A DNA stretch of 63,773 nt, filler included, from Octopus bimaculoides (lineage: Eukaryota): the NCBI RefSeq assembly GCF_001194135.2. It is 5 parts of 4 records of this genome, joined end to end, with 100 filler letters (N's around TTAATTAATTAA, not from the genome) between each part and the next. Parts side by side here need not be neighbours in the genome. Positions count along the whole stretch, not along the records: positions 11,692 to 33,034 come from NC_068985.1; positions 33,135 to 51,842 come from NC_068982.1; positions 51,943 to 59,073 come from NC_068996.1; 2 more parts are not named here. One strand, 5' to 3'. The notes under the pieces are model-generated. The model was not told the origin of the DNA. It did not search any database and saw only the letters and a program-made list of their open reading frames with translations. Shown in pieces: positions 11,960-54,230 of this stretch; within the stretch, counting starts at the first letter, position 1, and each line of letters opens with the position of its first letter. Both the position numbers and the translations under genes were made by a program.

Positions 11960-12300
11960 AATACGAAATACGAAAACATAGAATACGCACTTTATTTGCG
12001 AACAACGAAAGAAACAAATGGAAAACAAGACAAGTAACATAAAGAACGACCCTTCATCAGCTGTCGGCTGTTTATCTGCTCCACATTTCGAGCAATTACG
12101 ACAAGATGTATCTTCGAGAAAACAGTTACTCCCGCAAAGCAAAATAAAATTTGGGATTTGCGGAGGGTCAAAGTTGGTAACAAAAACAGGGCAGTGAAAA
12201 AAAAAACAGTAAGGGCTGCTAAGCCATAACGAGGTGAGGTGGCAAACGCTGGAGGAACAAGCTTTGACAGGAGAAAAGATAGGAGACACACACACATGTA
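11960..12300 (-). mobile_element. Penelope-like terminal-repeat relic
   Basis: Similar to 1380-1490; carries the permuted HHR and AATAAA near its 3' end. PLE identity inferred. Confidence 0.5.
12048..12169 (-). ncRNA. Non-circularly permuted hammerhead-like ribozyme, complete
   Basis: X GACCCU/AGGGUC; hairpin CCGCAAA/UUUGCGG; stem II GAGUAA/UUGCUC; IIIb CUGUUU/AAACAG; stem III UACAU/AUGUG; AUC^ site at 12105/12104; stem I UUGUCG/CGACAG; GAAA and CUGAUGA intact. Confidence 0.8.
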
Positions 12301-12739
12301 TAAATATATATATATATATATTTAATATTTTTGGATTAATGGGTATACGTCGATTAGGGTGTTGAAGTGTTGAGTTGAGCACTGGCATAGTTTGGGCTAC
12401 CTGGTGTCATCCGCAGTTGGGGTATATTTCGGTTGGATCTACTTCAGGAATTCCGCAGTGTTAGTTGAGATAATCGACCTCGGAGGAATTTGAACTCAGA
12501 ACGTAGCGACGGACAAAATACCTATTTCGTTATTGCCCACAAGGGGCTAAACATAGAGGGAACAAACAAGAACAGACGAACGGATTAAGTCGATCACATT
12601 TCAGAACCAAGATGTTTGATAAAAGCTAAATTATAATTTTTGCATGCAAGCTATATTTCCTGATATCACCCGTGGTGGCCAAATATATTTCCAAAGTAAC
12701 CTGTCATATGTTGTGTATCACTCTAGTATCTCTCTAAAA

Positions 12740-12945
12740 AATAGTCTCAAATTTTGGCACAAAGCCAGCATGTTTGGAGAGAGAGGCTAAGAGGATTGCA
12801 TCGACCCCAGTCCTCAATGTGTACTTATTTTATCAACCCCGAAAAGATAATGGGTAAAGTCAACCTCGGCGGAATTTGAACTGAGAACGTAGGGACGGAC
12901 GAAATGCCGCTAAGCCCGACGTATTAACGATTCAACCAGCTCGCG
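12740..12945 (-). mobile_element. SINE family B copy (another partial copy at about 12470-12530)
   Basis: GTCAACCTCGGCGGAATTTGAACTGAGAACGTAG...CCAGCTCGC is the reverse complement of the family B head. Confidence 0.8.
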
Positions 12946-13434
12946 ATATAAATATTGGATGGCTGGTTGGTTAATTACTCGTTACACTTTATATTGTATA
13001 GAGAGAGTGGGCGAGCAGCAGAGAGAAAGAAAGAGTTTAAGATAAATACAGAGAGGGAATTAACATACGCGATGCTAGATGAGTGCTCAATAACTTTCTG
13101 AAAAACATACAATTTTTAATTATTTCTGCCTTTTTGTTTTTTTATTCTTTTTTTCAACGGTAAGTTTCCGATGGAGTAGATAGCAATTATGTTGATAAAA
13201 TGTACAAAAATAATAACATATTTATTGCAAATATACACATGAGAAATGTGTTTTTATTTAATTTCATTTTAAGATAATAACCGTTTTGTATTGAAAATTA
13301 GTATCCATTTCATCATTTTGGTATAAATATCAAGAAGCTTGATAAAAACGAAATTGTAATTATTATACGCATTCCATATTTCATGATGGAAAAAGTATGC
13401 ATCAAAAGTTACCCGCTGTACACCGGGTGGTCTT

Positions 13435-14210
13435 CATCTTCTTCTAGTCAGGTGTCGCACTATGGGATGCTGTGGTCATCACGATGTCCTGCCACCTTCT
13501 CCTGTCCTCTACCCTATGGACAGCTGAGAATAAAGTCAATCCTGTGGCTGCGATGTCTTTCAGCCAAGAAGTGGGTGGTCTGCCTCTTTTATCGTCTGCC
13601 GTTCACCTTGCCAGTGATGATCGTTCGCTCAAGTCCATCCCGGCGCATGACGTGGCCAAAGAACCGTAGCTTCCGCTTCATAATGTTTCGCCGAAGCGTC
13701 ATCTCACAACCCAGCTTTTCTAGTACTCAGTTGTTCGTCCTTCTCTCCGTCCACGACACTCTAAGGAATCAGCGGTAACACCACATTTCAAAAGTGTTCA
13801 CTCTTTTCTCGTCTGCTTTCAGCATTGTCCAAGACTCACAGCCGTACGTCGCAATAGAGAAAGCGGCAGCCCGAAGTAGCCTTATTTTCAGCAGCATTGA
13901 CACGCCACGACTCTTCCAAATGTTCTCCATGTCTTGTACCGCTTGCCTCGCTATCGCGAGCCTTTTCCGTATCTCTGGTGTACTCGATCCACTGGTGCTG
14001 ATTGTGAATCCCAAGTACACAAAATCATCCACTTCCTCAATCATCTCTCCGCTCTACGGTGAAGTCAACTTGGTCTGTCCTGTACTTATCCGCCATTAAG
14101 ATCTTTGTCTTCTTTACATTCAGGAATAGGTCACTCGGTGCACTCATGTCTTTCACTTTGCGTATCATCTGCAGCAATTCGTCCTTGCTGTTACTTATGA
14201 GGGTGGTACT
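13435..14210 (-). mobile_element. RTE-clade LINE, 3' part (RT C-terminus and thumb), degenerate
   Basis: AADDT near 14170; EEVDDFVYLG..EIRKRLAIAR..KIRLL..YGCESWT..FEMWCYR*FLRVSWT.RRTN..KRKLRFFGHVMRRDGLER..GKVNGRR*RGRPPTSWLKDI. Confidence 0.9.
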
Positions 14211-14234
14211 CTAGTGTATATAATCATTTCTTTT

Positions 14235-14794
14235 ATAGGCGGGAGGCCTCAAATTTTGTAAGAGGGACGGGGTTAGTCGATTACATTGATCCTAGTGCTC
14301 AACTATACTTATGTTTATCGATCGCAAAAAGACGTAAGGGTAAGTCGACGTCGGTAGAATTTGATCTCAGAAAGTAAAGACGGATAAAATTCTGCTAAGT
14401 ATTTTGTTCGACGCACTAACGACTCTGCCAGCTCGCCGCCTTTAATCTCTTTATGATTAACTGGTATCTATTTTTATCGATCCCAAAATGATGAAAAGAA
14501 AAATTGACCTCTGCAGAATTTTATCTCAGGGCGCAAAAACGGAAGAAATGCCGTCAGAGCATTTTATCCGACGCCCCCAAATAATTCAATCAGCAAGCCA
14601 CCTTTAGTCTCCATATGATAATAGTTGATTACATCGACCCCAGTGCTCATCTGGTACTTATTTTTATCGATCCAGAAAGGATGAAAGGCAAAGTCGACCT
14701 CGGCAAAATTTTATCTCAAAACTAAAAGATGGAGAAATATTGCAAATCATTTTATAGACACCTGCTGACGATTCTGCCAGCTCTCCACCTTTAA
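14235..14794 (-). mobile_element. Three head-to-tail SINE family B copies
   Basis: Each has GTCGAC/TTGACC..GAATTT.ATCTCAG and ends in (G/A)CCTTTA; similar short linkers separate them. Confidence 0.8.
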
Positions 14795-15033
14795 CCCATT
14801 ACCTACCAGTGATCTCATATGAGATCACTTAAAAATTACAAATTTCGTAATTATCTGTCAATATTTACACATATCTAACCTTTTTGTTATATCTATTAGG
14901 TATATTTCTCTGATATTCAAATGAGGTTTGCTAATTTTTCACCCAATATCTCGCTTATTTCTATTTAAAATGTTATTTTGAAATGTTATTTTGATCATTC
15001 CAGCGTGTTAATAGAATTATGGGAGGTAATGGG
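14795..15033. mobile_element. piggyBac-type MITE with TTAA target duplication
   Basis: TTAA-CCCATTACCT...AGGTAATGGG-TTAA (TSDs 14791-14794 and 15034-15037). Confidence 0.85.
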
Positions 15034-15891
15034 TTAAACTCTGTATGATAATAGTCGATATAAATGTTTGTTGGTTGGGTTGTTGGTTGGTTGATTTCTC
15101 ATATGAGGGAGTATCATTCTATTCTATAATAAAGGACACATTACCTTGGTGGCAAAACTTTACTTCGAAAGTTACTTGTCATGACAGATGACTTCGAATG
15201 TTACCTATAATAAAGGACATACTGGATTATACAGAGTTAGATTAGCTGTCTGTTATAAAGTACAAGAAATTAATGCATGAAACACATTTAACCATAGGAC
15301 TTCCGGAACATTGTTGACAAAGATTATACACCATCAGGCATATACATTATCATAATTGCTTATTTCTTTCGATTAAGAATGACAACTTTTATAGATCGTA
15401 CAATGCAAATTCTTGTGTTCATCAGCTGACCTACGTAGGACCAAAGAGCTAGAAGCACACTGGTTGATTAATGACTAGAATCACGTGGTGTCTTCTTTAA
15501 TGAGTTTTCGTTGAAAACGTAGGAAAGCTTGGTTCTCTAATCCTCATTGAAAATCTATGCGGTTTCATATATTTTGATTAAAGAGCAACGTATGACTTCT
15601 TTCACCACCGTTACGCAGTTTATAAAGACCGCTTGTCATTCTAATAACAGAATCAATAGTTAATATATGGAGTAATGTTTAGGTCTAGATGTATATGCAT
15701 AAATATTCATATATATACGTACAAAGATGAATTACACATACACACACATAAACATATATACGGTGGAGAAACGCAGATAAAGTTATTCAACTGTTATTAT
15801 GTAAAGCGGTGTATTCCTGTGATAAGAATAAGCGATGTACATAGAGGTATATGTGTGTGCACGCACGCGCTTGTGTGAATGTGTTTGCGTG

Positions 15892-15926
<35 letters not shown>

Positions 15927-16614
15927 TTTTACATATATATACATATATACATATGCGTGTGTGTGTAGTTTATTTAAGTTGGCCCAGTGATCTATTGCTT
16001 TACACCATATTAAATAAACTACTGTACACCAATACTCCTGCGGATCGATACTCAGCGAAGCACACTCACACACAACTCTCTCTCTCTCTCAATCTCTTTC
16101 TCTCTCTCTCTCTCTCTCAATCTCTTCCTTCTCTCCCACTCACTTTCTCTCTCTCTCTCTCAATATATATATGTGTGTGTGTGTGCATATNNNNNNNNNN
16201 NNNNNNNNNNNNNNNNNNNNNNNNNNNNNNNNNNNNNNNNNNNNNNNNNNNNNNNNNNNNNNNNNNNNNNNNNNNNNNNNNNNNNNNNNNNNNNNNNNNN
16301 NNNNNNNNNNNNNNNNNNNNNNNNNNNNNNNNNNNNNNNNNNNNNNNNNNNNNNNNNNNNNNNNNNNNNNNNNNNNNNNNNNNNNNNNNNNNNNNNNNNN
16401 NNNNNNNNNNNNNNNNNNNNNNNNNNNNNNNNNNNNNNNNNNNNNNNNNNNNNNNNNNNNNNNNNNNNNNNNNNNNNNNNNNNNNNNNNNNNNNNNNNNN
16501 NNNNNNNNNNNNNNNNNNNNNNNNNNNNNNNNNNNNNNNNNNNNNNNNNNNNNNNNNNNNNNNNNNNNNNNNNNNNNNNNNNNNNNNNNNNTATATATAT
16601 GCATATATATATGC

Positions 16615-16669
<55 letters not shown>

Positions 16670-16773
16670 CATACATATACGTATATATACACACATGTGT
16701 GCTTATGCGTGTATATTAATTTGTGAGTGTGGTTGGTGCGTACGAGAGTCTTCATGTGAGTGTATGTGTGTGC

Positions 16774-16855
<82 letters not shown>

Positions 16856-17173
16856 ATGTATTTATGTATGTATGTATAATCTGACATTTAACTTCCGCTT
16901 TCAAGCTACATCCGAATACATCGGCCATGTTAGACTCTTAAACGGAGGTGTTTGTTCGTAAGCAGGCATTGGTTAACTGTTTGTTTATGTTCAGCAGTGT
17001 AATAAAGGTGATGCTGTAGAAATGTGGTAACAAGATGTTAGTCATTGGAAGAATGTGTAAACAAGTGAGAAATACATTCTGATTGGTTAACGTTTTCTGT
17101 CAATAATTGCTTTGCTTTGAATAGGCAAAGGGTTGCTTTTAGTCATTTATCGATTCTTATTGAATTTTTGGGA

Positions 17174-17247
<74 letters not shown>

Positions 17248-17270
17248 TGACAGATAGATATATAGATAGA

Positions 17271-17339
<69 letters not shown>

Positions 17340-17380
17340 GGATGGATGGATGGATAGATAAATGGATTAATATATATATA

Positions 17381-17430
<50 letters not shown>
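17174..17430. repeat. (GATA/GACA/GATG)n and (GT)n microsatellites
   Basis: Seen directly. Confidence 0.95.
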
Positions 17431-17431
<1 letters not shown>

Positions 17432-17446
17432 GTATGTATGTATATA

Positions 17447-18640
17447 CAGGGTGCGTAAAGTATTTGAGAACATACATTTTTGGGATCATTGCTGCATTTT
17501 TTGCTAACTCTGTATAATCTTTGTTTCAGAAGATAATGACGGCAGACCCTCAGCTTACTCAAGAAATGAAGGAGCTGTTATTGTGATTATAGAAGGATGA
17601 TAGTCGCGATTTAGAAATATCTCGATTTTTAAAGTTACCAGACCTTTCGTCTAAAAAGTGTGTAAGGTGCTAGAGACTGAAAATGGAAGCGTATCACCAG
17701 TATCAAAGCATAAAAAGCACTCTAAACGCTCTGAAATCATCAGAACACCTGAATTTATCCAGAAAGTTCAACAGACCATTGTTTACAATCCCAGAAATCC
17801 TTTGAGGCTAGTTGCAAAAGTTCTCCGTGTGTCAGAAGGAAGAGTCAGAAATGTTATCCACGATGACATCAGATACAAGTCGTATATGATGAGGAAAGGC
17901 CAATTTGTCAGAAAAGCAAATTTAAAATCGCTACATCAGATCTAAAAAGCTCTTAAACAAACTGAAATATCCAGCAGAAGAAGATTTGATTTGATTTTTC
18001 TCAAACGAGAAAAACTTCGACCAAGATCAATAAGTTAACAGAAGAAATGACAGATGGTTATGAGCAAACCCTTCTGAAATTCCAAGTGTTATGCATACAA
18101 AATTTCCTGCAATTGTCATAGTTTTAGGGGCTGTCAGCCGCCTACATTTAGGTCCTTTAAATAATTGTTAAACCTTGGATAGAGAGCGTATACAATGGAA
18201 GGCCATAAGTGTTTCAGTAAGGCTCTGCACTATCACATGGTTCTAGTAACACAGGAATGGATAGCTGAAAATGTTCATTATCACATAACCCCTAACATTT
18301 GGCATCCTAATTCCCCAGACCTCAAGCCATTGAACTATCACATACGGAACGTTGTTCAGAGAGAGAGGCGAATGCACACACCCATAACTCCAAAGATTCT
18401 TTGAAAGCTGCCATAGTCAGAGTAATGTCTAAAATGGACCAGGACCACTCGATTCGAGCATGGAGATGATTTAGATCTCGTATAGAAGCAGTTGTTGAAG
18501 CTGAAGGTGGCTTTATTGAATAACATTATAGAAAAGAAGGTTTATTTTTATCCTCATAGCGTCTTTTTGATAAATAAAGTTATTACCTGTTATTATATAT
18601 CTGTTTTCTATAAGCATAAAGGTGTCCTGAAATATCTTAC
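17447..18640 (+). mobile_element. Near full-length degenerate Tc1/mariner-superfamily transposon, maT (DD37D)-like; right TIR cut by a gap
   Basis: TA-CAGGGTG left end; interrupted transposase with RTPEFIQKVQQ, FFSNEKNFDQDQ*VNRRNDRW, VMHTKFPA, WHPNSPDLKPLNY; AAATATCTTAC before the gap resembles the inverted left TIR. Confidence 0.85.
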
Positions 18641-18854
18641 NNNNNNNNNNNNNNNNNNNNNNNNNNNNNNNNNNNNNNNNNNNNNNNNNNNNNNNNNNNN
18701 NNNNNNNNNNNNNNNNNNNNNNNNNNNNNNNNNNNNNNNNNNNNNNNNNNNNNNNNNNNNNNNNNNNNNNNNNNNNNNNNNNNNNNNNNNNNNNNNNNNN
18801 NNNNNTATATATTACATTCTACATAAAATATAAATATAAATATAAATTTACTTA

Positions 18855-19070
18855 TGCCATTGGCCTCTTTATCTCACTCTTATATGCTTAGCGAAATGTT
18901 TTGCGGTATTTCGTCTGCCGTTACATTCTGAGTTCAAATTCCACCGAGATCGACTTTGCCTTTCATCCTTTCGGGGTCGATAAATTAAGTACCAGTTGTG
19001 TACTCGGGTCGATCTAATCGGCTGGCCCCCTCCCCCAAAATTTCGGGACTTGTGCTTAGAGTACAAAAGG
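18855..19070 (+). mobile_element. SINE family B copy
   Basis: GAAATGTTTTGCGGTATTTCGTCTGCCGTTACATTCTGAGTTCAAATTCCACCGAGATCGACTTTGCC...TAAGTACCAG. Confidence 0.85.
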
Positions 19071-19394
19071 ATGTTCTGGGGAAGGTGGATTGGGCATTGT
19101 AGTTAGCAGGAGAAAAGTATAACGTTTCGGATATAGTCCTTCGTCGCGGATAGGCTCACTACTGAGAGGTGGGTGAAGAATACGGCTGTCGTTGCCATCG
19201 TTTTCATAGTTATTGTATAACACCAGGTCGGCTGTGATCGAGCAGACTTTATTCAAAGCTATTTCATCTGTGACTAACCTGTTTGTTTCAGGATTTTCTT
19301 TTTCTTACATTTTCTCTCAATTCGCAACGGACTCAGGAGCAGAATATCGAATGTGTATTTTTTATAAGACAGCAGTTGGTGATTTTAATATCGA

Positions 19395-19607
19395 TTTTTT
19401 TACTTGTTTCTGTCATTAAACTACGGCCATACTGGGGCACCGCCTTGAAGGATTTTTTAGTCGAATAGATCGATCCCAGTAAGTTTTGCTGAAATGCTAG
19501 GTTACGTGAACACAAACAAACCAACACCAGTTGTCAAGCAGTAGTGGGGTAAACATACATACAAAGACACGCACATAATATACATGTATATATGTCTATA
19601 CATACAC

Positions 19608-19647
<40 letters not shown>

Positions 19648-19835
19648 ACATGCATATGTGTGTGTGTGTGTGTGTGTGTGTGCCAACTTAGGTTTCTTTC
19701 AGTTTCCGTGTACTTAATTCACCACTCACAAGTCTTTGGTCGACTTGAGATTGCAATAGAAGAGACTTGCCCCGGGTGCCACGTGATAAGACTGAACACG
19801 GAACTGTGCGGCTGGAAAGCAAACTTCTTACCACA
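19395..19835 (-). mobile_element. SINE family A copy with internal (TA)/(TG) tract
   Basis: Tail at 19395-19560 and head part at 19680-19835 match 56640-57060. Confidence 0.75.
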
Positions 19836-20314
19836 CGAAGAAAGAGAAAGAGATAGAGAGAGATGAAGAGATGGAGAAATGGAGAGAGTGCGAGGAAAGT
19901 GAGGAGTAATTTATGTCTCTATTTCTCTGTCTCTCTCTGTCTCCCTTTCTCTCCTTATCTCTCTCTCCCTTTCTCTCTCACCCTCTCTCTTTCTCTCATT
20001 CTCTCTCTTCCCTTTTCTTTCTACCTGTTTGTCAAAGACATTTACCAGTCCCGAATTTAAAATGTTTCTGGAAATGTCAAATCAAAGAACTCAATTAATT
20101 ATTTACATCGTTTCGAAACAAAATCACTTTTCATTGCTTCCTTCATCAAATGCTGCTCTCCCCTCAAGCATCCCCTCATCTCCTTCCTCCCCTCCTCTCA
20201 CTCCCCCTCCTCCTTACTCTTACTCATCATCTTTTTTTCCTTTTTCCTCTTTCATCATTTCTTTCTTATTTCTTTACATCGCCCTCCGTTCCTTCTACAC
20301 CCCTCTCTCTCTCA

Positions 20315-20365
<51 letters not shown>

Positions 20366-20428
20366 GTCAGTTCTACTTTCCTACCTTCTTCCCTTCCTTT
20401 CTTCGATGCATTTTACTATTTATGCCAT

Positions 20429-20465
<37 letters not shown>

Positions 20466-23400: not shown

Positions 23401-23945
23401 TAAATGTCCCTTTGTAGGCCTGTAAGAAGTTATGTTAAGTGATTGAGATCGTGGTAAGCTGTACTTATTGATTGAACGAGAATGGCATTAACCTGTTTCG
23501 ACATCACATAACGAGAATCTAATTCGTTGTGCAGGTAAGATGTTCGCTTTGCAACCACATGGTTTCGACTTCAAAACCACCATGCAACATCTTGGGCCAG
23601 GGTCTTCTTTTATTGCCCCGAGCTGACCAATGACTTGTGAGTGAATTTGATAGACGGAAACTGTGTGGAAGTCCGTCATATATGCGCGCGTGTTAGTGTC
23701 TGTGTTTCTCCAGCACGTACCGTCTCACAACAGGTGTTGGTTCGTTTAGGTCCCCGTAACATAGCGATTTCGGCAAAAGAGAACTGCTACAATAAGGACC
23801 GGACATAAAAATTGGCCCCGGCTTTATTTCTTTGACGTTCGACTAAACTATCCAAGAGGATGCTCCTTCATGGCCGCAGCCCAGGGACTGAAACAAGTGA
23901 ATGATAAACGATAAAAGATAAAAAAAATAAATCATACACAAGGAT

Positions 23946-24248
23946 ATAGGCGCAGGAGTGGCTGTGTGGTAAGTAGCTTGCTTACCAACCACATGGTTCC
24001 GGGTTCTGTCCCACTGCGTGGCATCTTGGACAAGTGTCTTCTACTATAGCCTCGGGCCGACCAAAGCTTTGTGAGTGGATTTGGTAGACGGAAACTGAAA
24101 GAACCCCGTCATATGTGTGTGTGTTTGTGTGACTGTGTTTGTCTCCCTAGCATTGCTTGACAACCGATGCTGGTGTGTTTATGTCCTCGTCACTTAGCGG
24201 TTCGGCAAAAGAGACCGATAGAATAAGTACTAGGCTTACAAAGAATAA
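23946..24248 (+). mobile_element. SINE family A, best-preserved head (older copy at about 23500-23900; fragments at 22975-23100, 29005-29180, 30400-30650, 32230-32420)
   Basis: TAGGCGCAGGAGTGGCTGTGTGGTAAG...GGTTCCGGGTTCTGTCCC with tRNA-like A/B boxes, then GGCAAAAGAGACCGATAGAATAAGTACT. Confidence 0.85.
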
Positions 24249-25468
24249 NNNNNNNNNNNNNNNNNNNNNNNNNNNNNNNNNNNNNNNNNNNNNNNNNNNN
24301 NNNNNNNNNNNNNNNNNNNNNNNNNNNNNNNNNNNNNNNNNNNNNNNNNNNNNNNNNNNNNNNNNNNNNNNNNNNNNNNNNNNNNNNNNNNNNNNNNNNN
24401 NNNNNNNNNNNNNNNNNNNNNNNNNNNNNNNNNNNNNNNNNNNNNNNNNNNNNNNNNNNNNNNNNNNNNNNNNNNNNNNNNNNNNNNNNNNNNNNNNNNN
24501 NNNNNNNNNNNNNNNNNNNNNNNNNNNNNNNNNNNNNNNNNNNNNNNNNNNNNNNNNNNNNNNNNNNNNNNNNNNNNNNNNNNNNNNNNNNNNNNNNNNN
24601 NNNNNNNNNNAAGGAAATGGTTTGAGTACATCAACCCCGGTAGGTTACCGATACTTTGTTTTACTGAGCCCCTCAAGGGAGGATGAGAGGCAAAGTTGAC
24701 TGACCACGGCGGAATTTGAACTAAGAATGTGAAGTGGAGGAACAAATATCGTGAAACGCTATGTAAAATATCTCCCGAAGCAGAACACCAAAATGTTTCC
24801 ATTCACCCTTGAAATAGTTTCCACCAAATATGTCTCTAGCGTATTTACGAGTTTGTTCGTCGACGAAGAATCATAAACAAACAAACAAAAAAGAAAAGCA
24901 TTACATCACTGTCGTAAATGATGTAACGGTGATACAGAAAGAAACTTTACAAGAGGAATATAAATGCTAGCATTTCAATATCCTTTTAATTCGTTTATAG
25001 AAGAAGGATCAATCGCAACCTATAGAAACCGAAACCTTACACATTGCAGAAATAACTGCAATAAATATTGCGAAACGAAAGGTTTTACAAAATCACAAAT
25101 ATTCTTGAAGTTAAATGGTAGCGACTCATGTCTGCTTCAATTAGCGGAAGTCGTTAAAACCATATTTCATAAATATGGGATATGTTCGTATTTTCACTAA
25201 TTAGTCATGGGAGAGACGTGTGTGTGTGTGTGTGTGTGCATACATATATACGTACATAGATACATGCATATATACGTACGTATATATATACGCTCCCACA
25301 TACATATACATACATATATAAGTGTACGTATATGTATGAGCGTATGTACATATATGTATATGTGTGTGTGTGTGTGTATGTGTGTGTGTATTCATACATA
25401 CATATATATATTCATATATAGATATATATATATATACATGTTCAAGCTTTGATTCTCATATACTTATA

Positions 25469-26017: not shown

Positions 26018-26898
26018 NNNNNNNNNNNNNNNNNNNNNNNNNNNNNNNNNNNNNNNNNNNNNNNNNNNNNNNNNNNNNNNNNNNNNNNNNNNNNNNNNNN
26101 NNNNNNNNNNNNNNNNNNNNNNNNNNNNNNNNNNNNNNNNNNNNNNNNNNNNNNNNNNNNNNNNNNNNNNNNNNNNNNNNNNNNNNNNNNNNNNNNNNNN
26201 NNNNNNNNNNNNNNNNNNNNNNNNNNNNNNNNNNNNNNNNNNNNNNNNNNNNNNNNNNNNNNNNNNNNNNNNNNNNNNNNNNNNNNNNNNNNNNNNNNNN
26301 NNNNNNNNNNNNNNNNNNNNNNNNNNNNNNNNNNNNNNNNNNNNNNNNNNNNNNNNNNNNNNNNNNNNNNNNNNNNNNNNNNNNNNNNNNNNNNNNNNNN
26401 NNNNNNNNNNNNNNNNNNNNNNNNNNNNNNNNNNNNNNNNNNNNNNNNNNNNNNAAGTAGACACCCTGTGCAATTCGCACACCCGATCATCCCACGCAAT
26501 GCCACTGGTGCATGTGGGATAAGATTGTATTCGTCGGAATCATAGTTCAATAATCCTAAGTGTCAGGAACCGACTGGTGGCTGGCAATTCTGTGCAAATA
26601 TCAATAAACAAAGATATTTATAAGAAACGAGAGAACAGAATCGGCTTGAACGTAATGTTCTTGAAAACACCAAAACTTAACTGTGCTGGTTGAGCAGAAT
26701 TATTGCCAATGACGGTAAACCCACCAAGTAATTTAACTGTTTTTCTGTTACACTGGCAAACGGTAAGTCAAGATAATCATTAACGTTTAATTCCCATTTA
26801 ATGTCACAATGTACCATAAAACATATATGGGTGCCATTTTAGCGTACAGTCTATCAGGTTATTTACACTTTTGCATGCAATCTAACACTGACCTTAAA

Positions 26899-26928
26899 CC
26901 CTAACCCTAACCCTAACCCTAACCCTAA
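26899..26928. repeat. Five CCCTAA (TTAGGG) telomere-type units
   Basis: Seen directly. Confidence 0.9.
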
Positions 26929-27089
26929 CCCCCAGCCAAAACCTAAATCTAAGCCAGATCAAGTCATTTTACAGCGTAGACTACGGATACTGCAGTAGAC
27001 TGCGCGCTTAAGTTGCACTCACATACGAGATACAATGCAGAAGTTTTGAGACTTTTGAGAAGAGGCAATTATAACTGTCCAAGGTTTTT

Positions 27090-27560
27090 ATAATGAAGAT
27101 AACATGGACGTCGCTCGGGCTCGAAAGATTGATCGTTATGTAAACCTCCTCGAGGAATGTGAAGACGCAGGCTGGAAAGTGGAACATTTTTCAATCGAAG
27201 TCGGATGTAAAGGTTTCATAGGACACAGTGTGAGACGACTGCTGTTATCGTTAGGTCAAACTGATCGTAAGGTAAATACCACCATGACCGATATCCAAAA
27301 TACAGTGGAGAAGGCTAGCCACTGGATTTGGTTAAAAAGAGACGATGAGCGATGACTAGAGGAATATTGAGTTTTATTTAATAACCAGTTGATCTAGCAA
27401 GCGGGGCCTCATATCAGTGAGGGGTGCCGGGGTGAATTGATGCCGTTGAGAGGTAGGCCCCGAAACGGCACTCATTCTCTCCTGATGACCCCATACACTT
27501 GCTAGCTTCCGGTATGAAGAGTTATCGATTGGTAGTACTTGCATGTGTATGTTGTCTTTC
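27090..27560 (+). mobile_element. 5'-truncated HERO-type (R2-group) non-LTR retrotransposon: endonuclease C-terminus and 3' UTR
   Basis: EDNMDVARARKIDRYVNLLEECEDAGWKVEHFSIEVGCKGF..SLG..EKASHWIWLKR. The GW...IEVG.GF and AS.WIWLKR motifs are characteristic of HERO-like RLE domains; 3' boundary approximate. Confidence 0.75.
27417..27496 (+). ncRNA. Non-circularly permuted hammerhead-like motif in the HERO-type 3' UTR
   Basis: Stem III UGCCGU/ACGGCA; GUU^ site at 27447/27448; stem I GAGAG/CUCUC; stem II GGGGU/GCCCC; GAAA 27462-27465; CUGAUGA 27482-27488; X GUGAGGGG/CCCCAUAC (one mismatch); enclosed by CUAGCAAG/CUUGCUAG. Confidence 0.7.
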
Positions 27561-30958: not shown

Positions 30959-31135
30959 TGAAGCGGCGAGCATGCAGAACCGATAGCACGCCGGACGAAA
31001 TGCTTAGCGATATTTCGACCGTCACTACCTTCTGAGTTCAAATTCCGCCGTGGTCGACTTTACTTTTCATCCTTTCGGGGTCGACTTATCTCCTTCCCCA
31101 AATTCCAGGCCTTGTGCCCATAATAGAATGGATCA
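30700..31135 (+). mobile_element. Two SINE family B copies
   Basis: Heads GAAGGCTGACAGAATCGTTAG and GCGGCGAGCATGCAGAACCGATAGCACGCCGG with the family core. Confidence 0.8.
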
Positions 31136-32097: not shown

Positions 32098-32429
32098 ATA
32101 CGGCGACAAGGAGAAAAGCACGGAGAAAAAAAATTGAATAGTGTTCAGTCAACGGTCAATCATTATATATATAAACACACACGCATATATATTTGTTTAT
32201 TTATCTATGTGCATGTGTTTTTATGTGTTAGACTCCCCATCATCGCTTGACAACTGGTGTTGTTGTGTTTAGGTCTCTGTAACTTAGCGGTTCGACAAAG
32301 AAACCGATAGAATAAGTACTGGGCTTAAAAATAATCCCTGGGGTCGCATGTATCGACAAAACCACATGAAGGCGGTGCTCCAGCATGGCCGCAGTCAAAT
32401 GACCGAAACAAGGAATAGAATTAGGCAAA

Positions 32430-41191: not shown

Positions 41192-41833
41192 GTAGGTAGG
41201 TAGACAAAAAGCTACTTTGAAAAGCAATAACATGTGAAAGCCTCAGACGTTATTTGTATATAACATAATTAATTTTTATAATAAAAGAACAAAAGAAAAT
41301 GAATAGCTCACAAATAACTTTTTAGAAACATTGAGCCAACAAGCAAACTTTAAGAAAAGATAATTTCTTTTCTTAGTTATTGAAGTAATACGATAAGAAA
41401 AATAATTCATCATCAAGAAACGTCTGTATCATTAAATAATAGGCTATTGATCTATTGTTTATCGTCGCAGTCAATAGTTATTTTTAGAGACAGCTTATAT
41501 TGTCTCAAATGGCAGTGATGAAGTAGACTTTTAATACTTATAAGCTACTCAATTTCCAACTATTCATAAAAAAAGCCGAAAAAAAAAATCGCAGTAATTA
41601 TTTGGAGGAGAGTCCATTAGAAAAAATTATTAAAATATTTTTCCTTTTCTGATATCAATTTTATCTTGGTCACTTTTATCTTTCGCTTCATTTCACACAT
41701 ATACACTTACAGAAACAAATCAGTAAAAAAATATATTTCAAGCTTAGTCTACTTGAATCCGTAGATGAAAAATGTCACACAATACATGCCAATTACATAC
41801 CACATACATACAATACACATACATACGTGCGCG

Positions 41834-41923
<90 letters not shown>

Positions 41924-42274
41924 GGCTCTAAACTTACATTTGGTTTTATCTGTATTATGTGTGTATAATGGTAGTTCCTAAACCATAATGTTACAAGATC
42001 ATCTTTTCTTCACGCAAAAGTACAAATCATTCAATTTAATTGATTGTTATTGTATACGACTATAACTACCAGTATATTTAGCGCCAAGTTGTTGGCTCAA
42101 AATTTAAACATTTTATTTCCAAAGCAATAATTTCTGACAATGCAACATAATAAAAACAGAAATAACTAATTTAAAATAATTAACAATATTATTAATAACT
42201 ATTAAAACACACAAATATCTTTAATTACACTGTATTTTTAATATTTGTATTTTTAATATTTGTATTTTTAATAA

Positions 42275-42700
42275 GGCGGCGAGCTGGTAGAAACGTTAGC
42301 ACGCGGGGCAAAATGCTTAGCGGTATTTCGTCTGTCTTTACTTTCTGAGTTCAAATTCCGCCGAGGTCGACTTTACCTTTCGGGATCGATAAATTAAGTA
42401 CCAGTTGCCTACTGGGGTTGATCTGATCGACTGACCCCCTCTACAAAAATTTCGGGCCTTGTGCCTAGAATAGAATAGATTATTAATGTTCCTAAAGACT
42501 GTCAGCTGGCAGAATCATTAACATACCAGATAAAATGCTTAGCATCATTTCTTCCAGCTTTACGTTCTGAGTTCGATTGCTGTTCAGGTCAACTTTGCCT
42601 TGGGTCAATATAATAATAAAAAAAAAACAGTTGAGCACTGGGATCAATGTAATCGACTTATACCTTCCCCTAACTTGCTGGCCTTGTACCAAAATTTAAA
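42275..42700 (+). mobile_element. Two SINE family B copies (first is the best preserved)
   Basis: AAGGCGGCGAGCTGGTAGAAACGTTAGCACG...GAGTTCAAATTCCGCCGAGGTCGACTTT...TAAGTACCAG...GGCCTTGTGCC. Confidence 0.9.
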
Positions 42701-43899
42701 ATCATTATTGTTCCTAATTTTGTAACAGAAGGGCATCTGGCACAAACATGGAAATTAGTACATCCTCGGGTGAAGCAAGGAACAGTTTGCATATAGTTAT
42801 GAGCTATTCATTCTCAGCTGATAGTTACCACTACAACCACTTGTTCATATACGTGCTGCTTTTCCACTATGAATATTCGATCGATACTACGTCAACTTCA
42901 GTTCTATTGAACAAGTTAGTTGTCTATCACCTCTATTCAAAGTACATTCGACACATTCCTGTCACCTTCTCTCGGTACACCATACTAACCATTTGATAGA
43001 ATACTTCCTATCAAGAACATCAAACTTGTTTATGTCGATGTTACCCCCGCAAGACTTATAAATGTTCAAACTGAGCATCATCGGTATTAGAGACTTGTGA
43101 AGGACACTGGAACATTCTCTACACGAAAACATTAAAAAGAAATGAACTTTGAAAAGTACTTATGTTTCGAAAATGCAATAAAGTCAATAAATTGGGTGTA
43201 TCCCTGAGTTTCATTACACAATAGGACTATATATATTGAAATATACTTAAACACAAAGACGCATCGACGGTAAAAATCACTGTTCAGCTTCTGAATGAAG
43301 CTCTGGCACGCAGTTGTTCACGAACACAGAGCTCCTAAAGCACACGAGACATCTACCAGATATCCCTTGATGAGGCGACTGCTGAGGGGATGATGGTTTC
43401 ACTTAAAAAACAATTTTCTGTTAAGCCTCCTACAGATAACAACGGGAGAGAGAACATGAATGTATAGAAGGTGTTCAAACTAAATACACGCACACACACA
43501 GACACATACATATATACATACACACACACGCACACATATGTCTCATATTTAAATGTGTGTACCTGTCTTTATGAATACGGGTGCGTGTGTGTCTATTTCC
43601 ACAGGGTTTGTGTGATCTATCTAGTGCAGTAGCACAGTAGTAACGTAATGCTTGTAGCTAGTGAGGTTGAATACTCTCTTCTTGCTGTTTTCTGCTTTTA
43701 GCTAATTTACTGGCTTACGTCCAGCATAAATGGTAAAAAGAGGAGTCGAGTCTGTAAGCTTGTCTCATTATAGAATTTCCTCATCACTAACATTTCTGCA
43801 ATACTTCCAAAGACAGAAATTGGGTACTTCACGACCCCAACTAAACTAGAAGAGTTCTTAGAGTTATATTGCAACCCAGAAATGTGAAGTGAGTGCTTA

Positions 43900-47900: not shown

Positions 47901-48479
47901 CAGCGTTACATACTAGACGCACTCCAGTTTGATGCAAGTTGACGCAGAAGAAATCCGCGCGCATGAAATAATGAAGCCATTTTTTATTTACTTGAAATCA
48001 CCGAAATCAAAGCCTAGTGTCTACATCTAGGCACAAGGTTTGGGAATAGGAAAATACTTCAGACTTTGTCTCTCACATACATATACATGCATACATTCAC
48101 TCATTCATAGATACATACATGCATACATACATACATACATACATACATACATACATACATACATACATACGTGCATACACACACACACGCACACACACAT
48201 ATAGGTACATAAGTGTATGTATATTCACACACATGTAAGATTATAAAATGACGGACGGCAATAAAATAATCAAGTTAAGGTTTAGATAGAATACGATAAG
48301 GTGGTAATAAAAGAATTGGTGTTAAATCATGATAAATGTGATGAGAACAAAGGAGCTAAGAAAATGAAATAAACTGAAATGGTAAAAAAAACCCGATGGA
48401 AAAAAGACATTTTGATAAAGAAAACAACAACATTACACGAATAGATGAAATCGATTGAAGTTATTTTAAAAGATAAAGC

Positions 48480-48800
48480 TAAATCACCTGCCTCTAATAG
48501 GAATCTTAACCAGAATTTGACAGTGCTTGACCCCAAATATCTCCTTGCTATGGATTCCATTCAGTTCTTGTTTCTTCAGTCGAATCCGTCTTTCAGATCT
48601 CATACTCGCAGCGAACTCAAATGGAAAATTGTTTGAGCCACTTTCTATCAAATCTTCTATGCGCCAAGGTTTGATTAATTTACCCACACTATTTTCTTTT
48701 CATTAACAATCAGCTCTTTGTTCTACCAATGCTCAATATTATGAAGATGATATCACCCTTCTCTCTTCCATGAACTTCTAAACACTGGATTCATCTTCAA
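48480..48800 (+). mobile_element. Decayed LINE RT relic
   Basis: YEDDITL at 48740-48760 resembles YADD.TL; little other support. Confidence 0.3.
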
Positions 48801-48861
48801 GCCACCGTAACAAGTACGACATATCTACACTTTCTTTAAGAACAGAAATATCGAATAGTTT

Positions 48862-48912
48862 TCCAATAGTTATGACAATCCAATAGTTATGACAATCCAA
48901 TAGTTATGACAA
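48862..48912. repeat. Three perfect tandem copies of TCCAATAGTTATGACAA (17 bp)
   Basis: Seen directly. Confidence 0.95.
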
Positions 48913-51777
48913 TCTTGTTTCTATGAACATCACCAATATACACTCGCTGCACATATTAACCAAACGACCTTCTACGTCATCCTCTCTAGTTTTAGACATT
49001 ATACAATTCAAATCGATAATTTCGCTGCAGATGTTGGCTTTTATCATACCTGATGCATTCTCTTAGCAATCACAAGTTAATAGCATGACAAAATCAGCGT
49101 CTCAAGACTAATGTTCTTCTCAGAGGCAGTAAATGTCTCATTCCCGAAAAACTGCTAGTACTCTAAAAAAAACAAGTGAGATCCATAAAGCTCTCTGTTG
49201 TTATGCACACACGCTGGACATCAACTGAATCATTCTAACTAGTCTCAAAAAGAGAACCAATGTCATGGATATAGTTTCTTCTTCCTCATTAAAAATTATA
49301 ACGCGAAAGGAAATCACGATAAAACGATATAATCATCTGCAGATTTCAGTGACGTGAATCAGGTAAATTCCCACGGCATAAATGACTGCGAAAATATTTA
49401 CTGCCAATGAAGGAAAAGTATAACATAATTCCTGCAAGATTTTCGTTAAAACATTTCATAAATAGGTTTATTTGACTGGTTTCTATAGGAGAATCAGTGA
49501 TTTTGATAATCACGAATCTAATGAATTTTGATACAAGGCAAGTGTCAAAGAAATAGATAAATTTTATTTCTATTTAAATGTAAATTTGTTAATCGAGGAA
49601 AATAAAATATATATACAAATTATGTCCCTTACTTGATTTTGAAAGATAATTTTTTTAACGTAGCTTAAAAAGGAGTAAACTGACACAGGCATCCATACAT
49701 TATACTAGAAATAGTTTTCTCACAAAATATACAAGATAAATGAACAATTAGCTAAATATTTGTTTTTAAAAGTTAATAAACTTTCATGTCTCTCAGCCAT
49801 CTGCAAAAAGTAAAAAAAACCCAAAAAACAAATCATTAATAGACAGCATTAATCAAATGTCAAAGGCAGATTTTGGAAATGGTGTGTAAATAAAAGATGA
49901 AAAAACATGTAATACCGATTAACATTTCCATGTAAACAATTTCAAAATTGTTTTTTTATTAAAAGACAGTAGCGTATAACTTTCTATTCATAAACTTCTT
50001 CCACTGAATTCAGAAATTTAAAATTCAATCAATATTTTATTTATTCCGCATTGATTTTCATTAAAAGCACAGCATTTCCAAATCAGTTGACATTAGTGTT
50101 CAATAAAAGCCACATCAATGTGCTTTTGAAATCACTTCACCGGAGTGTTACAGCAGATATTAATCCAAAATGAAATACACTCTTGTTTAATTTTTCAATA
50201 GGAATGCGCTCACTATAAAATCTCCCCCATTCTCTGTCTCCCATCATCGCTTTCTCATAACAATGTAGTTTTGTTTTTAACGCTTTTATATATTTTTTTC
50301 AAAATGTGTGAATACATACAATGTTACATTTTTTCTCTCCCCCGAAAGACTTATTCACACCCCAAGCAATAATCATTATTAGTATTTAGTTTTGTTCCTG
50401 CTATTTTTATACCAAAGTTTTGTCACTGAAATACGTGAGAATAATATAAATATGAAATGGACTATTGATTAAAAGCTCCCAAAAATATTGGAAAAGAAAT
50501 AAGATGTAGAATTATTTTGCTAAAGATTATTTGTGCATTTTACTTCGCTTGATAGAATAATGGAAACAAAAAATGAATAGAATTGTAAAGCCATAAAAAT
50601 GTTTTAGTATTATTGTTTCCGAGAAGTATTTTGGCTTTCAAATACAAAACAGGCAGAAAAAGAATTGATGAAAGAAAAAAAAATCATTAAAATCTTCATC
50701 CAGCTTCTTACACCTGCTGTACGATACTGACGTAGTTGCTATTCTCCTGAAGGCTCTTCTTGGTTTTCATATTAAAATAATAACGTTAGTCGATAATGAA
50801 ACTGAAATAATTGTTCAAGTTGAAGATTACTTCAGTTATTTCTGTATCTTGAATGGAATCTGAAAAAGAAACAATTTATTCAATTTGACGTCAATCCCAC
50901 GTTTATCAGGTTTGTTTCTGAGATGAACAAATATCAATATTACTGCTGGCATGTAAAACAATCGAACATCGTTATGAAGCAAAATGTCTGCCGAGAGGAA
51001 ATGGGAAGAGCAAAGATCAAACTGTGTGATTGATAGATCTTAGTTTGAAATGCTATAGCTTCTGTTATGCTAATTAATTATTTGGACTACATTCTAATAA
51101 CAGATATATCGTAAGAGTTAGTTGAAATATAAATAACCTGAATAAAATCTGACATCAATTTTGCTAATCTAACTCTAATGAATCATGAATTGCTCATGAC
51201 GTAATGGACTATAATTTCGTACATTTAATGTAGTTTTTCTACCTCGCTATATACGATGTCATCTCGAATATTTGGTAAATATTTATCATTTAGTATTTAT
51301 TAAATACAACAGAATCCACAGAGACTGGAGGTGGTCAGCGTCACCAAGACATTTGAGAAATGTAATGCTGTATTGAAGAAACAGGCCGTTGCCATGCCGA
51401 CCGTTTTCCAGAGCACATTTGGAGTACACTGCTGCGTACACCAGGCCTACCTGACGTCACCCACTTGAACTTGCTGAACTTAAACGGGTTTATTACTTGC
51501 TGGTTTACACGTGTTTGCGCAGGCATACACACGCATACATACATACATAGATATTTATGCAAGTTCATATGCACAGAGACCTGTAAATACCGGGAGATCC
51601 GACACACTGGAATATAGATAAATGTGTACGCAAGCATGCAGAAAAATAGTGTATAAATAAGTAGGAAATAACACTAAATAGCCAAATAAATAAGTCTTTG
51701 TATATATTATTGATAGTAGGCATTTTAACCATACACATACATACACTTATACACGCTCTCTTTCTCTCCCTCTCTCT

Positions 51778-51808
<31 letters not shown>

Positions 51809-51942
51809 CCTCTCTCTCTCTCTCCCCTCTCTCTCTCTGTATNNNNNNNNNNNNNNNNNNNNNNNNNNNNNNNNNNNNNNNNNNNNTTAATTAATTAANN
51901 NNNNNNNNNNNNNNNNNNNNNNNNNNNNNNNNNNNNNNNNNN

Positions 51943-51973
<31 letters not shown>

Positions 51974-52099
51974 CATATAGATATATATATACACATATAT
52001 ACATATATACATATATACATATATACATATATACATATATATATATATACAAATATATATATATATATACATATATATGTGTGTATATATATGGCTTTT

Positions 52100-53085
52100 A
52101 TTCTTTTATTCTTTTGCTTCTTTCAGTCATTTGACTGCGGCCATGTTGGAGCTCCGCCTTTAGTCGAACATATCGACCTCAGGACTAATTATTTGTAAGC
52201 CTAGTACTTATTTTATTGGTGTCTTTTGCCGAACAGCTATGTTACGGGGACGTAAACACACCAACATCGGTTGTCAAGGGATGGTGGGGTACAGACACAC
52301 AAACATACACTTACATATACGTACAAGAAGGCGAGCTAGCAGAAACGTTAGCATGCCGAGCAAAATACTTAGCGGTATTTTGTCTGCCGTTACGTTCTGA
52401 GTTCAAATTCCGCCGAAATCGACTTTGCCTTTCATCCTTTGGGGGTCGATAAATTAAGTACCAGTTACGCACTGGGGTCCATGTAATTGACTTAATCCCT
52501 TTGTCTGTCCATGCTTGTTCCTTCTACCTTAGCCCCTTGTGGGTAATAAAGAAATAAGAAACATACTTACATATATATATATATANNNNNNNNNNNNNNN
52601 NNNNNNNNNNNNNNNNNNNNNNNNNNNNNNNNNNNNNNNNNNNNNNNNNNNNNNNNNNNNNNNNNNNNNNNNNNNNNNNNNNNNNNNNNNNNNNNNNNNN
52701 NNNNNNNNNNNNNNNNNNNNNNNNNNNNNNNNNNNNNNNNNNNNNNNNNNNNNNNNNNNNNNNNNNNNNNNNNNNNNNNNNNNNNNNNNNNNNNNNNNNN
52801 NNNNNNNNNNNNNNNNNNNNNNNNNNNNNNNNNNNNNNNNNNNNNNNNNNNNNNNNNNNNNNNNNNNNNNNNNNNNNNNNNNNNTATATATATATGTATA
52901 TATATATACACATATATATATACGATGGGCTTCTTTCAGTTTCCGTCTACCAAATCCATTCACAAGACTTTGGTCGGCCCGAGGTTATAGTAGAAGACAC
53001 TTTCCCAAGGTTCCACCCAGTGAGACCGAACCTGAGACCATGTTGTTGGTGAGCAAGCCTCTTACCACACAGCCACTATGGGTAT
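52100..53085 (-). mobile_element. SINE family A (tail 52100-52310, head 52920-53085) with a plus-strand family B copy (52325-52560) nested in its internal microsatellite
   Basis: Both halves match 56640-57060; family B head GAAGGCGAGCTAGCAGAAACGTTAGC lies between them; an N gap intervenes. Confidence 0.75.
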
Positions 53086-53126
53086 ATTGATGAAAAAAGG
53101 AAAATAGAACTCAAAATATGAGTATA

Positions 53127-53267
53127 CGGTAACGACTCGATATACGAGTTAATTCGGTCCCGGAGAACGCTCGTAAAACGAAAACTCGTAAACAAAATAT
53201 AAAACTCGTAAAAGCCGTAAACCCGGGTGTCTCGTAAAGTGGATTCTCGTAAAGTGAGTTATTACTG
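53127..53267. mobile_element. Tigger/mariner-type MITE flanked by TA
   Basis: TA-CGGTAACGACTC...GAGTTATTACTG-TA; internal CTCGTAAA occurs five times. Confidence 0.65.
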
Positions 53268-53789
53268 TATGTATATTTTTATTAATATTTAGCAGGAGTA
53301 ATATTATTTCCACCAAGGAAATATATTTATCACCAGCTATATTTATTACCTCACAAGTCTTCGGCCTGTAATTAGTTTTGGTAAGTGCCAACGCACGAAA
53401 CTCTCCGAACTTGAGACACTCTGTTACTTCTGCTAAATATTGGGTTGTTTGGAAAGTTTGTGCCGATTTATAGTAGCTTACCTTTCGACTTATTTGCCAT
53501 GAAACCACCTCAATTCCGGGAAGAGGCTATTTTCAAGTTAAAGGAAAGATGGAGACGCATTGTGCAACAAAATGGTTCATATTTGGTTGATTAAAAATGT
53601 AATGGCAAGTATTTATTGACCTTTTTCTTTCCTTTAAAAGTCGACACGAAATTTCCGGACGACTCAATATTAATAAAAATATATACACACTCATATATAT
53701 ATCTGTTCTTCGTGCCTACATTTTGATGAGCTCTATCGACAAACTGAATATTAGCATGGAGAATTACCATCTACCGTACTTAGTGATAT

Positions 53790-54230
53790 ATAGATATATA
53801 CATTATTGAATACCGCCGTCCGTGCCTGAGAAATCTTGTACCCCTGCCGTAAGGCTTTACTTCCACACACGCCAGCTTAATTTAATTCATCCTTAGTCGA
53901 AAGATACCTGATGTTATGTCCTGTTATTTGTATTTGTGTAACTTTTTCTCTTTTTCTTCCGTCCTTGTTTTCGTATACATTCGCTGCTGTCTTCCAAGGA
54001 ATCTAATGCTCTTAGCTTAGTTTTTCCTTGGGGCTGGCCAGATTGGAACAATCTCGAGTATAAGCAGCCGAAATTGCAAAGATAATCTGGAGCTCGACTG
54101 AGGAAAGAAAACTCCGAATGAACCGTCCTTGTTTTCTTTGTATCGTCTGTCTAGATGTTTTGTTGTCCCCCTTTTGTATCAACTGTCTGGATGTTTTGCG
54201 TTCTTGTCCCATTTTGTATTTTTTATATAT
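53790..54230 (+). mobile_element. Probable Penelope-like terminal region
   Basis: Pyrimidine-rich repeat-like block containing the permuted HHR; no ORF, so assignment is inferred. Confidence 0.4.
54019..54113 (+). ncRNA. Non-circularly permuted hammerhead-like ribozyme, complete
   Basis: X AGUUUU(UC)CUU/AAGAAAACU; stem II GGCUG/CAGCC; IIIb CCAGAUU/AAUCUGG; stem III CAAU/AUUG; AUC^ site at 54053/54054; stem I UCGAGU/GCUCGA; GAAA 54070-54073; CUGAGGA 54098-54104. Confidence 0.8.

Follow-up and report, generated by a model that had tools for sequence, protein, structure and literature searches.

RESULTS

Three loci in an Octopus bimaculoides window share a hammerhead-type motif

The DNA analyzed herein (the window; 63,773 nucleotides, filler included) joins five parts of four records of the Octopus bimaculoides genome (NCBI RefSeq assembly GCF_001194135.2) and is animal-type DNA with many microsatellites, short repeats, and assembly gaps. 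Three loci within it (loci 1, 2, and 3; Table 1) carry a motif with a full hammerhead ribozyme core, i.e., C3 U4 G5 A6 N7 G8 A9 together with G12 A13 A14, its blocks running from the cleavage site (S) through GAAA (G) to CUGANGA (C). Locus 2 lies in the 3' untranslated region (UTR) of what appears to be a HERO-like non-LTR (LTR, long terminal repeat) retrotransposon, the open reading frame (ORF) fragment of which ends just upstream of the motif; loci 1 and 3 are each situated between (TA)n runs, with no coding sequence alongside.

At each locus, stem I (6 bp) and stem III (4-6 bp) are correctly placed relative to the core, and 0 bp form between the strand 3' of A9 and the strand preceding GAAA. 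The full order reads X5'-hairpin H-II5'-IIIb5'-III3'-NUH-I5'-II3'-GAAA-III5'-IIIb3'-I3'-CUGANGA-X3', with one mismatch among the six stem II pairs at locus 2; as a description of the motif conserved among the relatives detailed below, we regard this structure as practically certain. An initial annotation of this DNA had proposed the core order III3'-NUH-I5'-linker-II3'-GAAA-III5'-IIIb3'-I3'-CUGANGA-X3', a non-circular permutation of the hammerhead, with predicted cut sites at 12105/12104 (AUC), 27447/27448 (GUU), and 54053/54054 (AUC); order and sites were all reproduced. It had also placed a single helix between A9 and G10.1, with X5' followed directly by II5'. An insert is indeed present, but it comprises two helices, X and H, in a four-way junction, H intervening between X5' and II5' at all three loci. 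The X5' strands formerly assigned at 27417 and 54019 thus lie inside H, and the alternative pairings proposed at loci 2 and 3, while possible on paper, are ruled out by homology, with relatives placing X5' further upstream (Table 1).

A descriptor comprising the ordered core blocks, stem I of at least 5 bp, and stem III of at least 4 bp matched exactly these three sites in the whole window, compared with 0.027 matches per window in local dinucleotide shuffles (n = 300). A fuller test that added helices was passed by 0/300 shuffled windows, though it also missed locus 2 (X of 2 bp; wrong II5' strand chosen by the script). Two further candidate cores, at 48579 (-) and 15425 (-), fell outside the descriptor, and any match to them by the covariance model described below was short and weak. 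Among the 150 of 226 Rfam matches listed for the window, only low-complexity matches and no hammerhead were present.

The motif recurs downstream of HERO-like ORFs

The reading frame upstream of the locus 2 motif resembles the C-termini of RVT_1 proteins of 1118-1153 aa (P0002 and P0003) and has a stop codon (27353-27355) where relatives carry Trp; a search with this fragment retrieved 872 cluster representatives at E <= 0.001. Full-length relatives contain RVT_1, a zf-RVT-like region, and a C-terminal nuclease, the motif of which we take to be that of a restriction-like endonuclease (RLE). Database names for these proteins are merely R2-type or long interspersed nuclear element (LINE) reverse transcriptase (RT). 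By eye, the P0002 RT agrees motif by motif with HERO-1_BF and HEROTn in the supplementary alignment of PMC7650587. On this by-eye placement, locus 2 appears to belong to a HERO-like element; HERO is described as a mostly non-specific RLE clade (PMC4640811), and its single-ORF architecture of RT plus C-terminal nuclease is shared by the locus 2 relatives.

We collected 83 related loci, namely the best 80 of 167 confirmed metagenome matches and 3 of 19 genome-contig candidates, the latter presumably being misassigned eukaryotic contigs. A strict parser scanning to 450 nt past the ORF recovered the motif in 50/83 loci. A covariance model that was trained on 27 relatives, contained no window sequence, and left out stems I and II located it in 68/83 (27 of the 68 being training sequences), in every case on the element strand; the 15 misses comprise six loci with <140 nt of tail, five with 290-500 nt, one decayed copy, and three with 1500 nt. 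In four loci found by the model only (L007, L014, L019, and L066), the motif is 350-680 nt downstream of the ORF and displays perfect stems I (6-7 bp) and II (5-6 bp), even though the model omits both. Applied to the window, this model, trained on HERO-like relatives only, ranked loci 3, 2, and 1 first, second, and third; its E-values (Table 1) are rough, and that of locus 1 (0.21) is not significant alone. The three loci, which the initial annotation considered unrelated, are thus so in stem sequence but constitute one structural family.

Several side observations concern these relatives. L001, L002, and L003 (contig C16 of G001) are bacterial-labelled genome records with HERO-like elements; C16, probably misassigned eukaryotic DNA, holds two weak motif copies, despite which a covariance-model genome search of G001 returned no match. 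Neither of two viral-contig candidates found with a HERO alignment was confirmed. The divergent elements L075 (1950-2000) and L077 (825-875) share a near-identical stretch of ~40 nt after the stop codon, with no Rfam hit in that stretch and no motif match in their 290-310 nt tails. Repeated TAATCC/GGATTA hairpin words occur in the first 250 nt past the ORF, upstream of the motif, in L014, L036, and L058.

All helices covary around an invariant core

Among the 51 rows containing X as well as H, 33 representatives with <80% identity were selected (mean identity over anchored columns, 0.50). Paired fractions were 0.93 for stem I, 0.98 for II, 0.89 for III, 0.87 for X, and 0.96 for H, compared to 0.44-0.67 for these helices with shuffled partners. 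A classical SGC stem II, formed with the strand after CUGANGA, was ruled out, as its pairing was at chance (0.41 versus 0.40 shuffled) and its first pair was present in 3/33. When 32 of these representatives were aligned with plain MAFFT, 80.9% of cells were paired (55.8% when shuffled), double changes were detected in 38/40 pairs, and slid controls gave 32-45%; every helix thus covaries among the relatives, in agreement with the covariation originally anticipated. The motif fit 41/69 3' tails but 0/69 reverse strands, 0/62 ORF stretches, and 1/690 shuffles, while a zero-linker junction emerged without penalty in 27/30 real sequences versus 65/600 nulls.

For the core itself, a relaxed scan (allowing one mismatch in each block, any base at N17, and whatever pair at 15.1-16.1) was fit by 49/73 loci and 0/100 shuffles. 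In these 49 loci, U4, G5, A6, G8, A9, A13, A14, A15.1, and U16.1 were each invariant, the A15.1-U16.1 pair and NUH site being retained throughout even with positions left free, and N17 was never G. G10.1, supplied by the upstream strand, was kept in 48/49 and C11.1 in 44/49, whereas N7 was free to vary and the base after A9 was variable. At gathering score, Rfam assigned no family within 16 motif loci, nor did an Rfam ribozyme search identify any within 13 loci lacking a strict fit. As to natural core variation, the closely related L007 and L009 have C3 changed to U with otherwise perfect stems, and the decayed L023, L059, L067, and L073 display G12 to A or similar changes at the C11.1-G12 CpG.

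Loci 1 and 3 and a possible link to Naiads

For loci 1 and 3, a Pfam scan covering 104 of the 429 reading frames listed detected nothing above cut-off; these copies may be solo termini. Locus 1 is contained in a high-copy repeat unit of ~330 nt to which 6609 contigs of run X1 were aligned; this repeat is probably a Penelope-like pseudo-LTR or a non-autonomous derivative thereof. Among the 40 of 143 variants listed, the commonest, at 12061 (stem I) and 12128 (stem II), each at ~97% of run X1 depth, convert wobble to Watson-Crick pairs, and the changes at 12160-12161 and 12083 have, by eye and unphased, matching changes in their partners in H and III, respectively. In RNA reads of this family, C11.1 to U (12090) is common. 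The pattern of the family had no match in metagenome contigs. A 5'-truncated second copy (Table 1) starts within ~10 nt of the predicted cut site, beside a microsatellite. Approximately 220 nt downstream of this copy, at 1211-1237 (-), is a remnant of a canonical-order, minimal hammerhead of the type found in Penelope-like elements (PLEs), with U4 changed, a short stem II, and GAAAC-GUC; one element may carry both ribozyme types.

Naiads are PLEs that prefer (TA)n and are described as lacking canonical hammerheads, with eight flagged as "half core" (Craig et al. 2021, PMC8557442). In an unsystematic reading by eye of the consensus sequences in the supplement of that article, the motif was found near the 3' end of ~10 of 54 Naiad entries, i.e., Amil, Aacu, Anas, Obim, Ovul, Esco (with a weak stem II), tentatively Bfor, one in supplement part 9, and two in part 12 (names being taken from the following header and sheet order). 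Naiad_Ovul and Naiad_Esco are both among those flagged "HHR_half_core" there; several nematode entries have the canonical hammerhead order instead. The motif is thus carried by different retroelement lineages, as initially suggested: the 3' tails of HERO-like elements and, by eye, the consensus sequences of Naiads, which encode an unrelated protein. Loci 1 and 3 resemble Naiads in their (TA)n flanks; known here without coding sequence, they are candidate members only, no tandem pseudo-LTRs being seen at either and four short words from the two loci matching no Naiad consensus sequence in the supplement.

Genomic copies and arrays extend past the predicted cut site

Genomic copies of the same family share sequence to 84-342 nt past N17, indicating that the RNA that was copied holds the whole motif. 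Across 30 representatives, 20-34 predicted base pairs (X, II, IIIb, and III) bridge the two products of cleavage, so that a cut, if made, could leave no more than a nick spanned by these pairs. Among 34 loci with at least 800 nt of flank, nine have a second element downstream on the same strand (head-to-tail arrays), and in six loci (L006, L012, L020, L029, L047, and L050) the next element starts ~100-135 nt past the predicted cut. The downstream elements of these six (and, by eye, of L040 and L053) begin with a conserved series of short hairpins, with TGAC/TGGC-like words between them; this series might be an array for protein binding or an internal promoter.

Of two apparent signs of cleavage, one was rejected and the other is anecdotal. 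A dip in RNA depth at 12093-12131, the rejected sign, is also present in DNA contigs. Contig L037 (1195-1279) ends exactly at the predicted N17 (GUC), but ten contigs, L037 included, stop no more than 170 nt past their ORF.

Table 1. Coordinates of the three motif copies and of associated or neighboring features in the window
Feature	Position	Strand	Remarks
Locus 1 motif	12047..12170	-	model rank 3, E 0.21 (rough; not significant alone)
Locus 1 upstream strands	X5' 12170-12164; H 12163-12132; II5' 12131-12126; IIIb5' 12125-12120	-	
Locus 1 site region	III3' 12110-12106; C17 12105; I5' 12104-12099; II3' 12095-12090	-	AUC
Locus 1 downstream strands	GAAA 12089-12086; III5' 12086-12082; IIIb3' 12073-12068; I3' 12066-12061	-	
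Locus 1 end	CUGAUGA 12060-12054; X3' 12053-12047	-	
Locus 2 motif	27385..27532	+	model rank 2, E 1.5e-3 (rough); closest relatives L004, L005
Locus 2 outer pairings	outer helix 27385-27393/27524-27532; distal X 27394-27401/27498-27505	+	outer helix by eye
Locus 2 upstream strands	X5' 27403-27406; H 27407-27422; II5' 27423-27428; IIIb5' 27432-27435	+	
Locus 2 site region	III3' 27441-27446; U17 27447; I5' 27448-27453; II3' 27456-27461	+	GUU
Locus 2 downstream strands	GAAA 27462-27465; III5' 27465-27470; IIIb3' 27472-27475; I3' 27476-27481	+	
Locus 2 end	CUGAUGA 27482-27488; X3' 27489-27492	+	
Locus 3 motif	53990..54108	+	model rank 1, E 1.3e-6 (rough)
Locus 3 upstream strands	X5' 53990-53993; H 53994-54031; II5' 54032-54036; IIIb5' 54038-54045; GA 54046-54047	+	
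Locus 3 site region	III3' 54049-54052; C17 54053; I5' 54054-54059; II3' 54065-54069	+	AUC
Locus 3 bend	GAAA 54070-54073; III5' 54073-54076; 3-nt bulge 54078-54080; GA 54081-54082	+	k-turn consensus
Locus 3 end	IIIb3' 54083-54090; I3' 54092-54097; CUGAGGA 54098-54104; X3' 54105-54108	+	
C-terminal RLE fragment of 5'-truncated HERO-like non-LTR retrotransposon (placed by eye)	27092..27361	+	54-57% identity to relatives
High-copy repeat unit of ~330 nt with locus 1	11960..12290	-	(TA)n flanks; contig depth falls at both ends
5'-truncated second copy of locus 1 family (II3' to past X3')	1395..1487	-	81% identity over 96 nt
Probable SINE-like repeats	14220-14800; 18880-19070; 23530-24250; 30960-31085; 32216-32421		
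Probable SINE-like repeats	42270-42720; 52100-53077; 54730-54940; 56635-57060		

DISCUSSION

Relation to known hammerheads

Non-circularly permuted hammerheads of types SGC (HRIMA-1) and CSG cleave in vitro, have a short linker between stems I and II, and possess a helix joining the far ends of these stems, which SGC cleavage requires (Eckert et al. 2023, PMC10085705). The motif described here shares with type SGC the same cyclic block order, the short I5'-II3' linker, the complete core, and the I-II joining helix, to which the helix named IIIb in the initial annotation corresponds. It differs in that SGC CUGANGA runs straight into stem II, the main text of PMC10085705 assuming it to be inseparable from its flanking stem strands ("block C"), whereas here block C is split and closed by X and H. 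The S-G-C order is therefore not itself the novelty, already being published; the new part is the break inside block C, after A9. Furthermore, published SGC ribozymes come from metatranscriptomes, with none from genomes of known organisms according to that main text, while the present motif is genomic and inside retrotransposons.

PLE type I hammerheads and non-LTR retrozymes likewise place their core close to a retroelement's 3' end, keep whole motifs in copies, and show a tandem arrangement (PMC4209133, PMC7229834, bioRxiv 10.64898/2026.07.22.740005, the latter a retrozyme survey with type I descriptors). However, these are circular permutations (C-G-S) with a weak or absent stem III and only stem I joining the products, whereas the motif here has the order S-G-C, a stable stem III, and four helices joining the products. 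PLE hammerheads also tolerate insertion between positions 9 and 10.1, an extra base there being usual (PMC4209133), which makes the A9/G10.1 step a tolerated hinge; core insertions listed in Perreault 2011 (PMC3088659) are of 1-2 nt only. We encountered no report of a ribozyme in HERO elements (subscription papers and Repbase Reports being outside coverage) nor of a hammerhead with helices inserted at A9/G10.1 (Eckert 2023 supplements, Repbase Reports, and two variant-hammerhead papers being outside coverage). With its S-G-C order, absence of Rfam matches in the loci searched, and interrupted block C, the motif as predicted is hammerhead-like yet fits neither types I-III nor the definition of type SGC, and belongs to the non-circular class as a variant.

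Predicted fold

In the fold that we envisage, the strand path would lead from A9 into X, from X5' into H, from H to G10.1, and from C11.1 to G12, i.e., a four-way junction, with X and H joined by zero linker nucleotides at the A9/G10.1 step. Stem II would stack on the A9-G12 pair as in any hammerhead and X on H, with strand exchange at A9/G10.1. The natural hairpin ribozyme also has a perfect four-way junction as a scaffold beside its catalytic core; it belongs to another ribozyme class, however, and in the present motif it is the A9-G10.1 step of the hammerhead itself that the junction breaks up.

A kink-turn (k-turn), or a bulge of at least 3 nt, would then bend the III/IIIb arm over until it meets stems I and II at their far ends. 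In the k-turn consensus, a canonical helix is flanked by tandem G-A/A-G pairs that come directly after a 3-nt bulge. This consensus (3-nt bulge, then GA opposite GA) is present between III and IIIb in 22/33 representatives, including locus 3 but neither locus 1 nor locus 2; when the bulge length was set to 0, 1, 2, 4, and 5 nt instead, the test returned 6, 1, 0, 0, and 8 representatives, respectively. Representatives without it contain plain bulges or larger loops at this position. Of the sharply bent stem III or dimer initially deemed necessary, the bend is thus retained, whereas a dimer is not needed.

Cleavage and its alternatives

Considering the above, we favor a conserved, pseudoknotted hammerhead-type motif at retrotransposon 3' ends that likely self-cleaves after NUH to leave a nick. 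That the motif self-cleaves at all seems to us likely; that cleavage serves to process unit-length RNA is a more guarded proposal, for which we consider the chances just short of even. In such a scheme, read-through transcripts of arrays or tandem pseudo-LTRs would be cut at successive motifs, releasing unit-length RNA with 5'-OH and 2',3'-cyclic phosphate ends. The paired ends would subsequently be rejoined by the ribozyme or by RtcB, which circularizes retrozyme RNA (PMC7229834), or else be crossed by an RT template jump, either of which would leave intact motifs in new copies.

Several observations weigh against this interpretation. (i) Copies end 84-342 nt downstream of N17, so the template is not simply the 5' cleavage product. 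(ii) The only array readable on both sides, L020 followed by L008, joins two families (638/857 aligned bases identical) and, being heterologous, fits poorly with rolling-circle copying of one RNA. (iii) RNA reads on locus 1 (736, run X24) are about equal on both strands, with no pile-up of starts or ends. (iv) L068, L082, and L083 have no model match in 1500 nt of flank each. (v) The window copies are decayed (stem II mismatches at locus 2, short X at locus 3). (vi) Representatives were picked by our own parser, so the pair counts lean towards the structure.

Some of these same data would suit a hammerhead fold that functions mainly as a 3' recognition structure for the retrotransposon protein, with cleavage being slow, protein-suppressed, or absent. 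The motif sits where LINE proteins bind their RNA, a binding to 3' RNA that is established for R2, and k-turns are protein-binding motifs; moreover, the whole motif is always kept in copies, locus 1 RNA reads lack an end pile-up, and PLE hammerheads cleave poorly in vitro (PMC4209133). However, the stems all vary around catalytic positions that do not change, and G is absent at N17 in 49/49 loci, which is more than a binding site needs; the same motif also occurs in Naiad elements (PMC8557442 supplement) with an unrelated protein. We consider a principal role in recognition unlikely.

Slightly less probable still is an active ribozyme that disables or trims RNA, either cutting read-through transcripts and thereby restricting copying to uncut RNA shielded by protein, or freeing the following array element at its 5' end. 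Arrays in 9/34 loci, the ~100-135 nt spacing from cut to next element in six loci, and the heterologous nature of the readable array (L020/L008) are all compatible with such trimming, as is the precedent of the R2 5' ribozyme, which frees R2 from its co-transcript (PMC7650587). Yet the element's own motif would still cut its own RNA and, with most copies outside arrays, selection would have to act on a neighbor's benefit.

Finally, cleavage might need a dimer in which two motifs meet via self-complementary H loops and exchange strands, given a perfect 6-nt palindrome at the center of H in 16/33 representatives (5.9 expected from shuffles), similar loops by eye in three Naiad entries of the PMC8557442 supplement, and the dimeric hammerheads described in animals, but this is very improbable since 17/33 lack the palindrome (several of them with 4-nt loops), the palindromes present draw on a small set of repeated words that may be shared by descent, and the k-turn removes the geometric need.

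Implications

Returning to a nicking ribozyme at retrotransposon 3' ends, we tentatively propose, as one scenario among several, that the motif may represent a seventh natural hammerhead topology, opened in the "unbreakable" block and rebuilt with a four-way junction and k-turn; that it may be a near-universal 3' module of HERO elements, moved between HERO and Naiad elements; and that it might cut without releasing its products, LINEs thereby transposing via nicked/re-ligated (circular) RNA rather than a plain linear template. Genomes of known organisms would thereby gain their first non-circularly permuted hammerhead, the structure of which breaks the rule used to enumerate permutations, hence Rfam and published descriptors miss it. 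It may also explain why Naiads "lack canonical hammerheads" while some carry "half cores" (PMC8557442). Similarly, the question raised in PMC10085705 of how stem III reaches the I-II helix, for which its main text makes no mention of a kink-turn, could find an answer in the k-turn. An RLE-type LINE clade is herein given a predicted ribozyme in its 3' UTR, a location at which self-cleavage would be expected to ruin the template; the transposition cycle must, in that case, include an undescribed step. A ribozyme that nicks but holds its products would, if true, be of use for RNA circularization.

Other features of the window

At least two to three families of dispersed repeats of 150-250 nt, probably short interspersed nuclear elements (SINEs), are distributed across the window (Table 1). 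A telomere-like (AACCCT)n run is located at 26897-26931, ~160 nt upstream of the HERO-like fragment.

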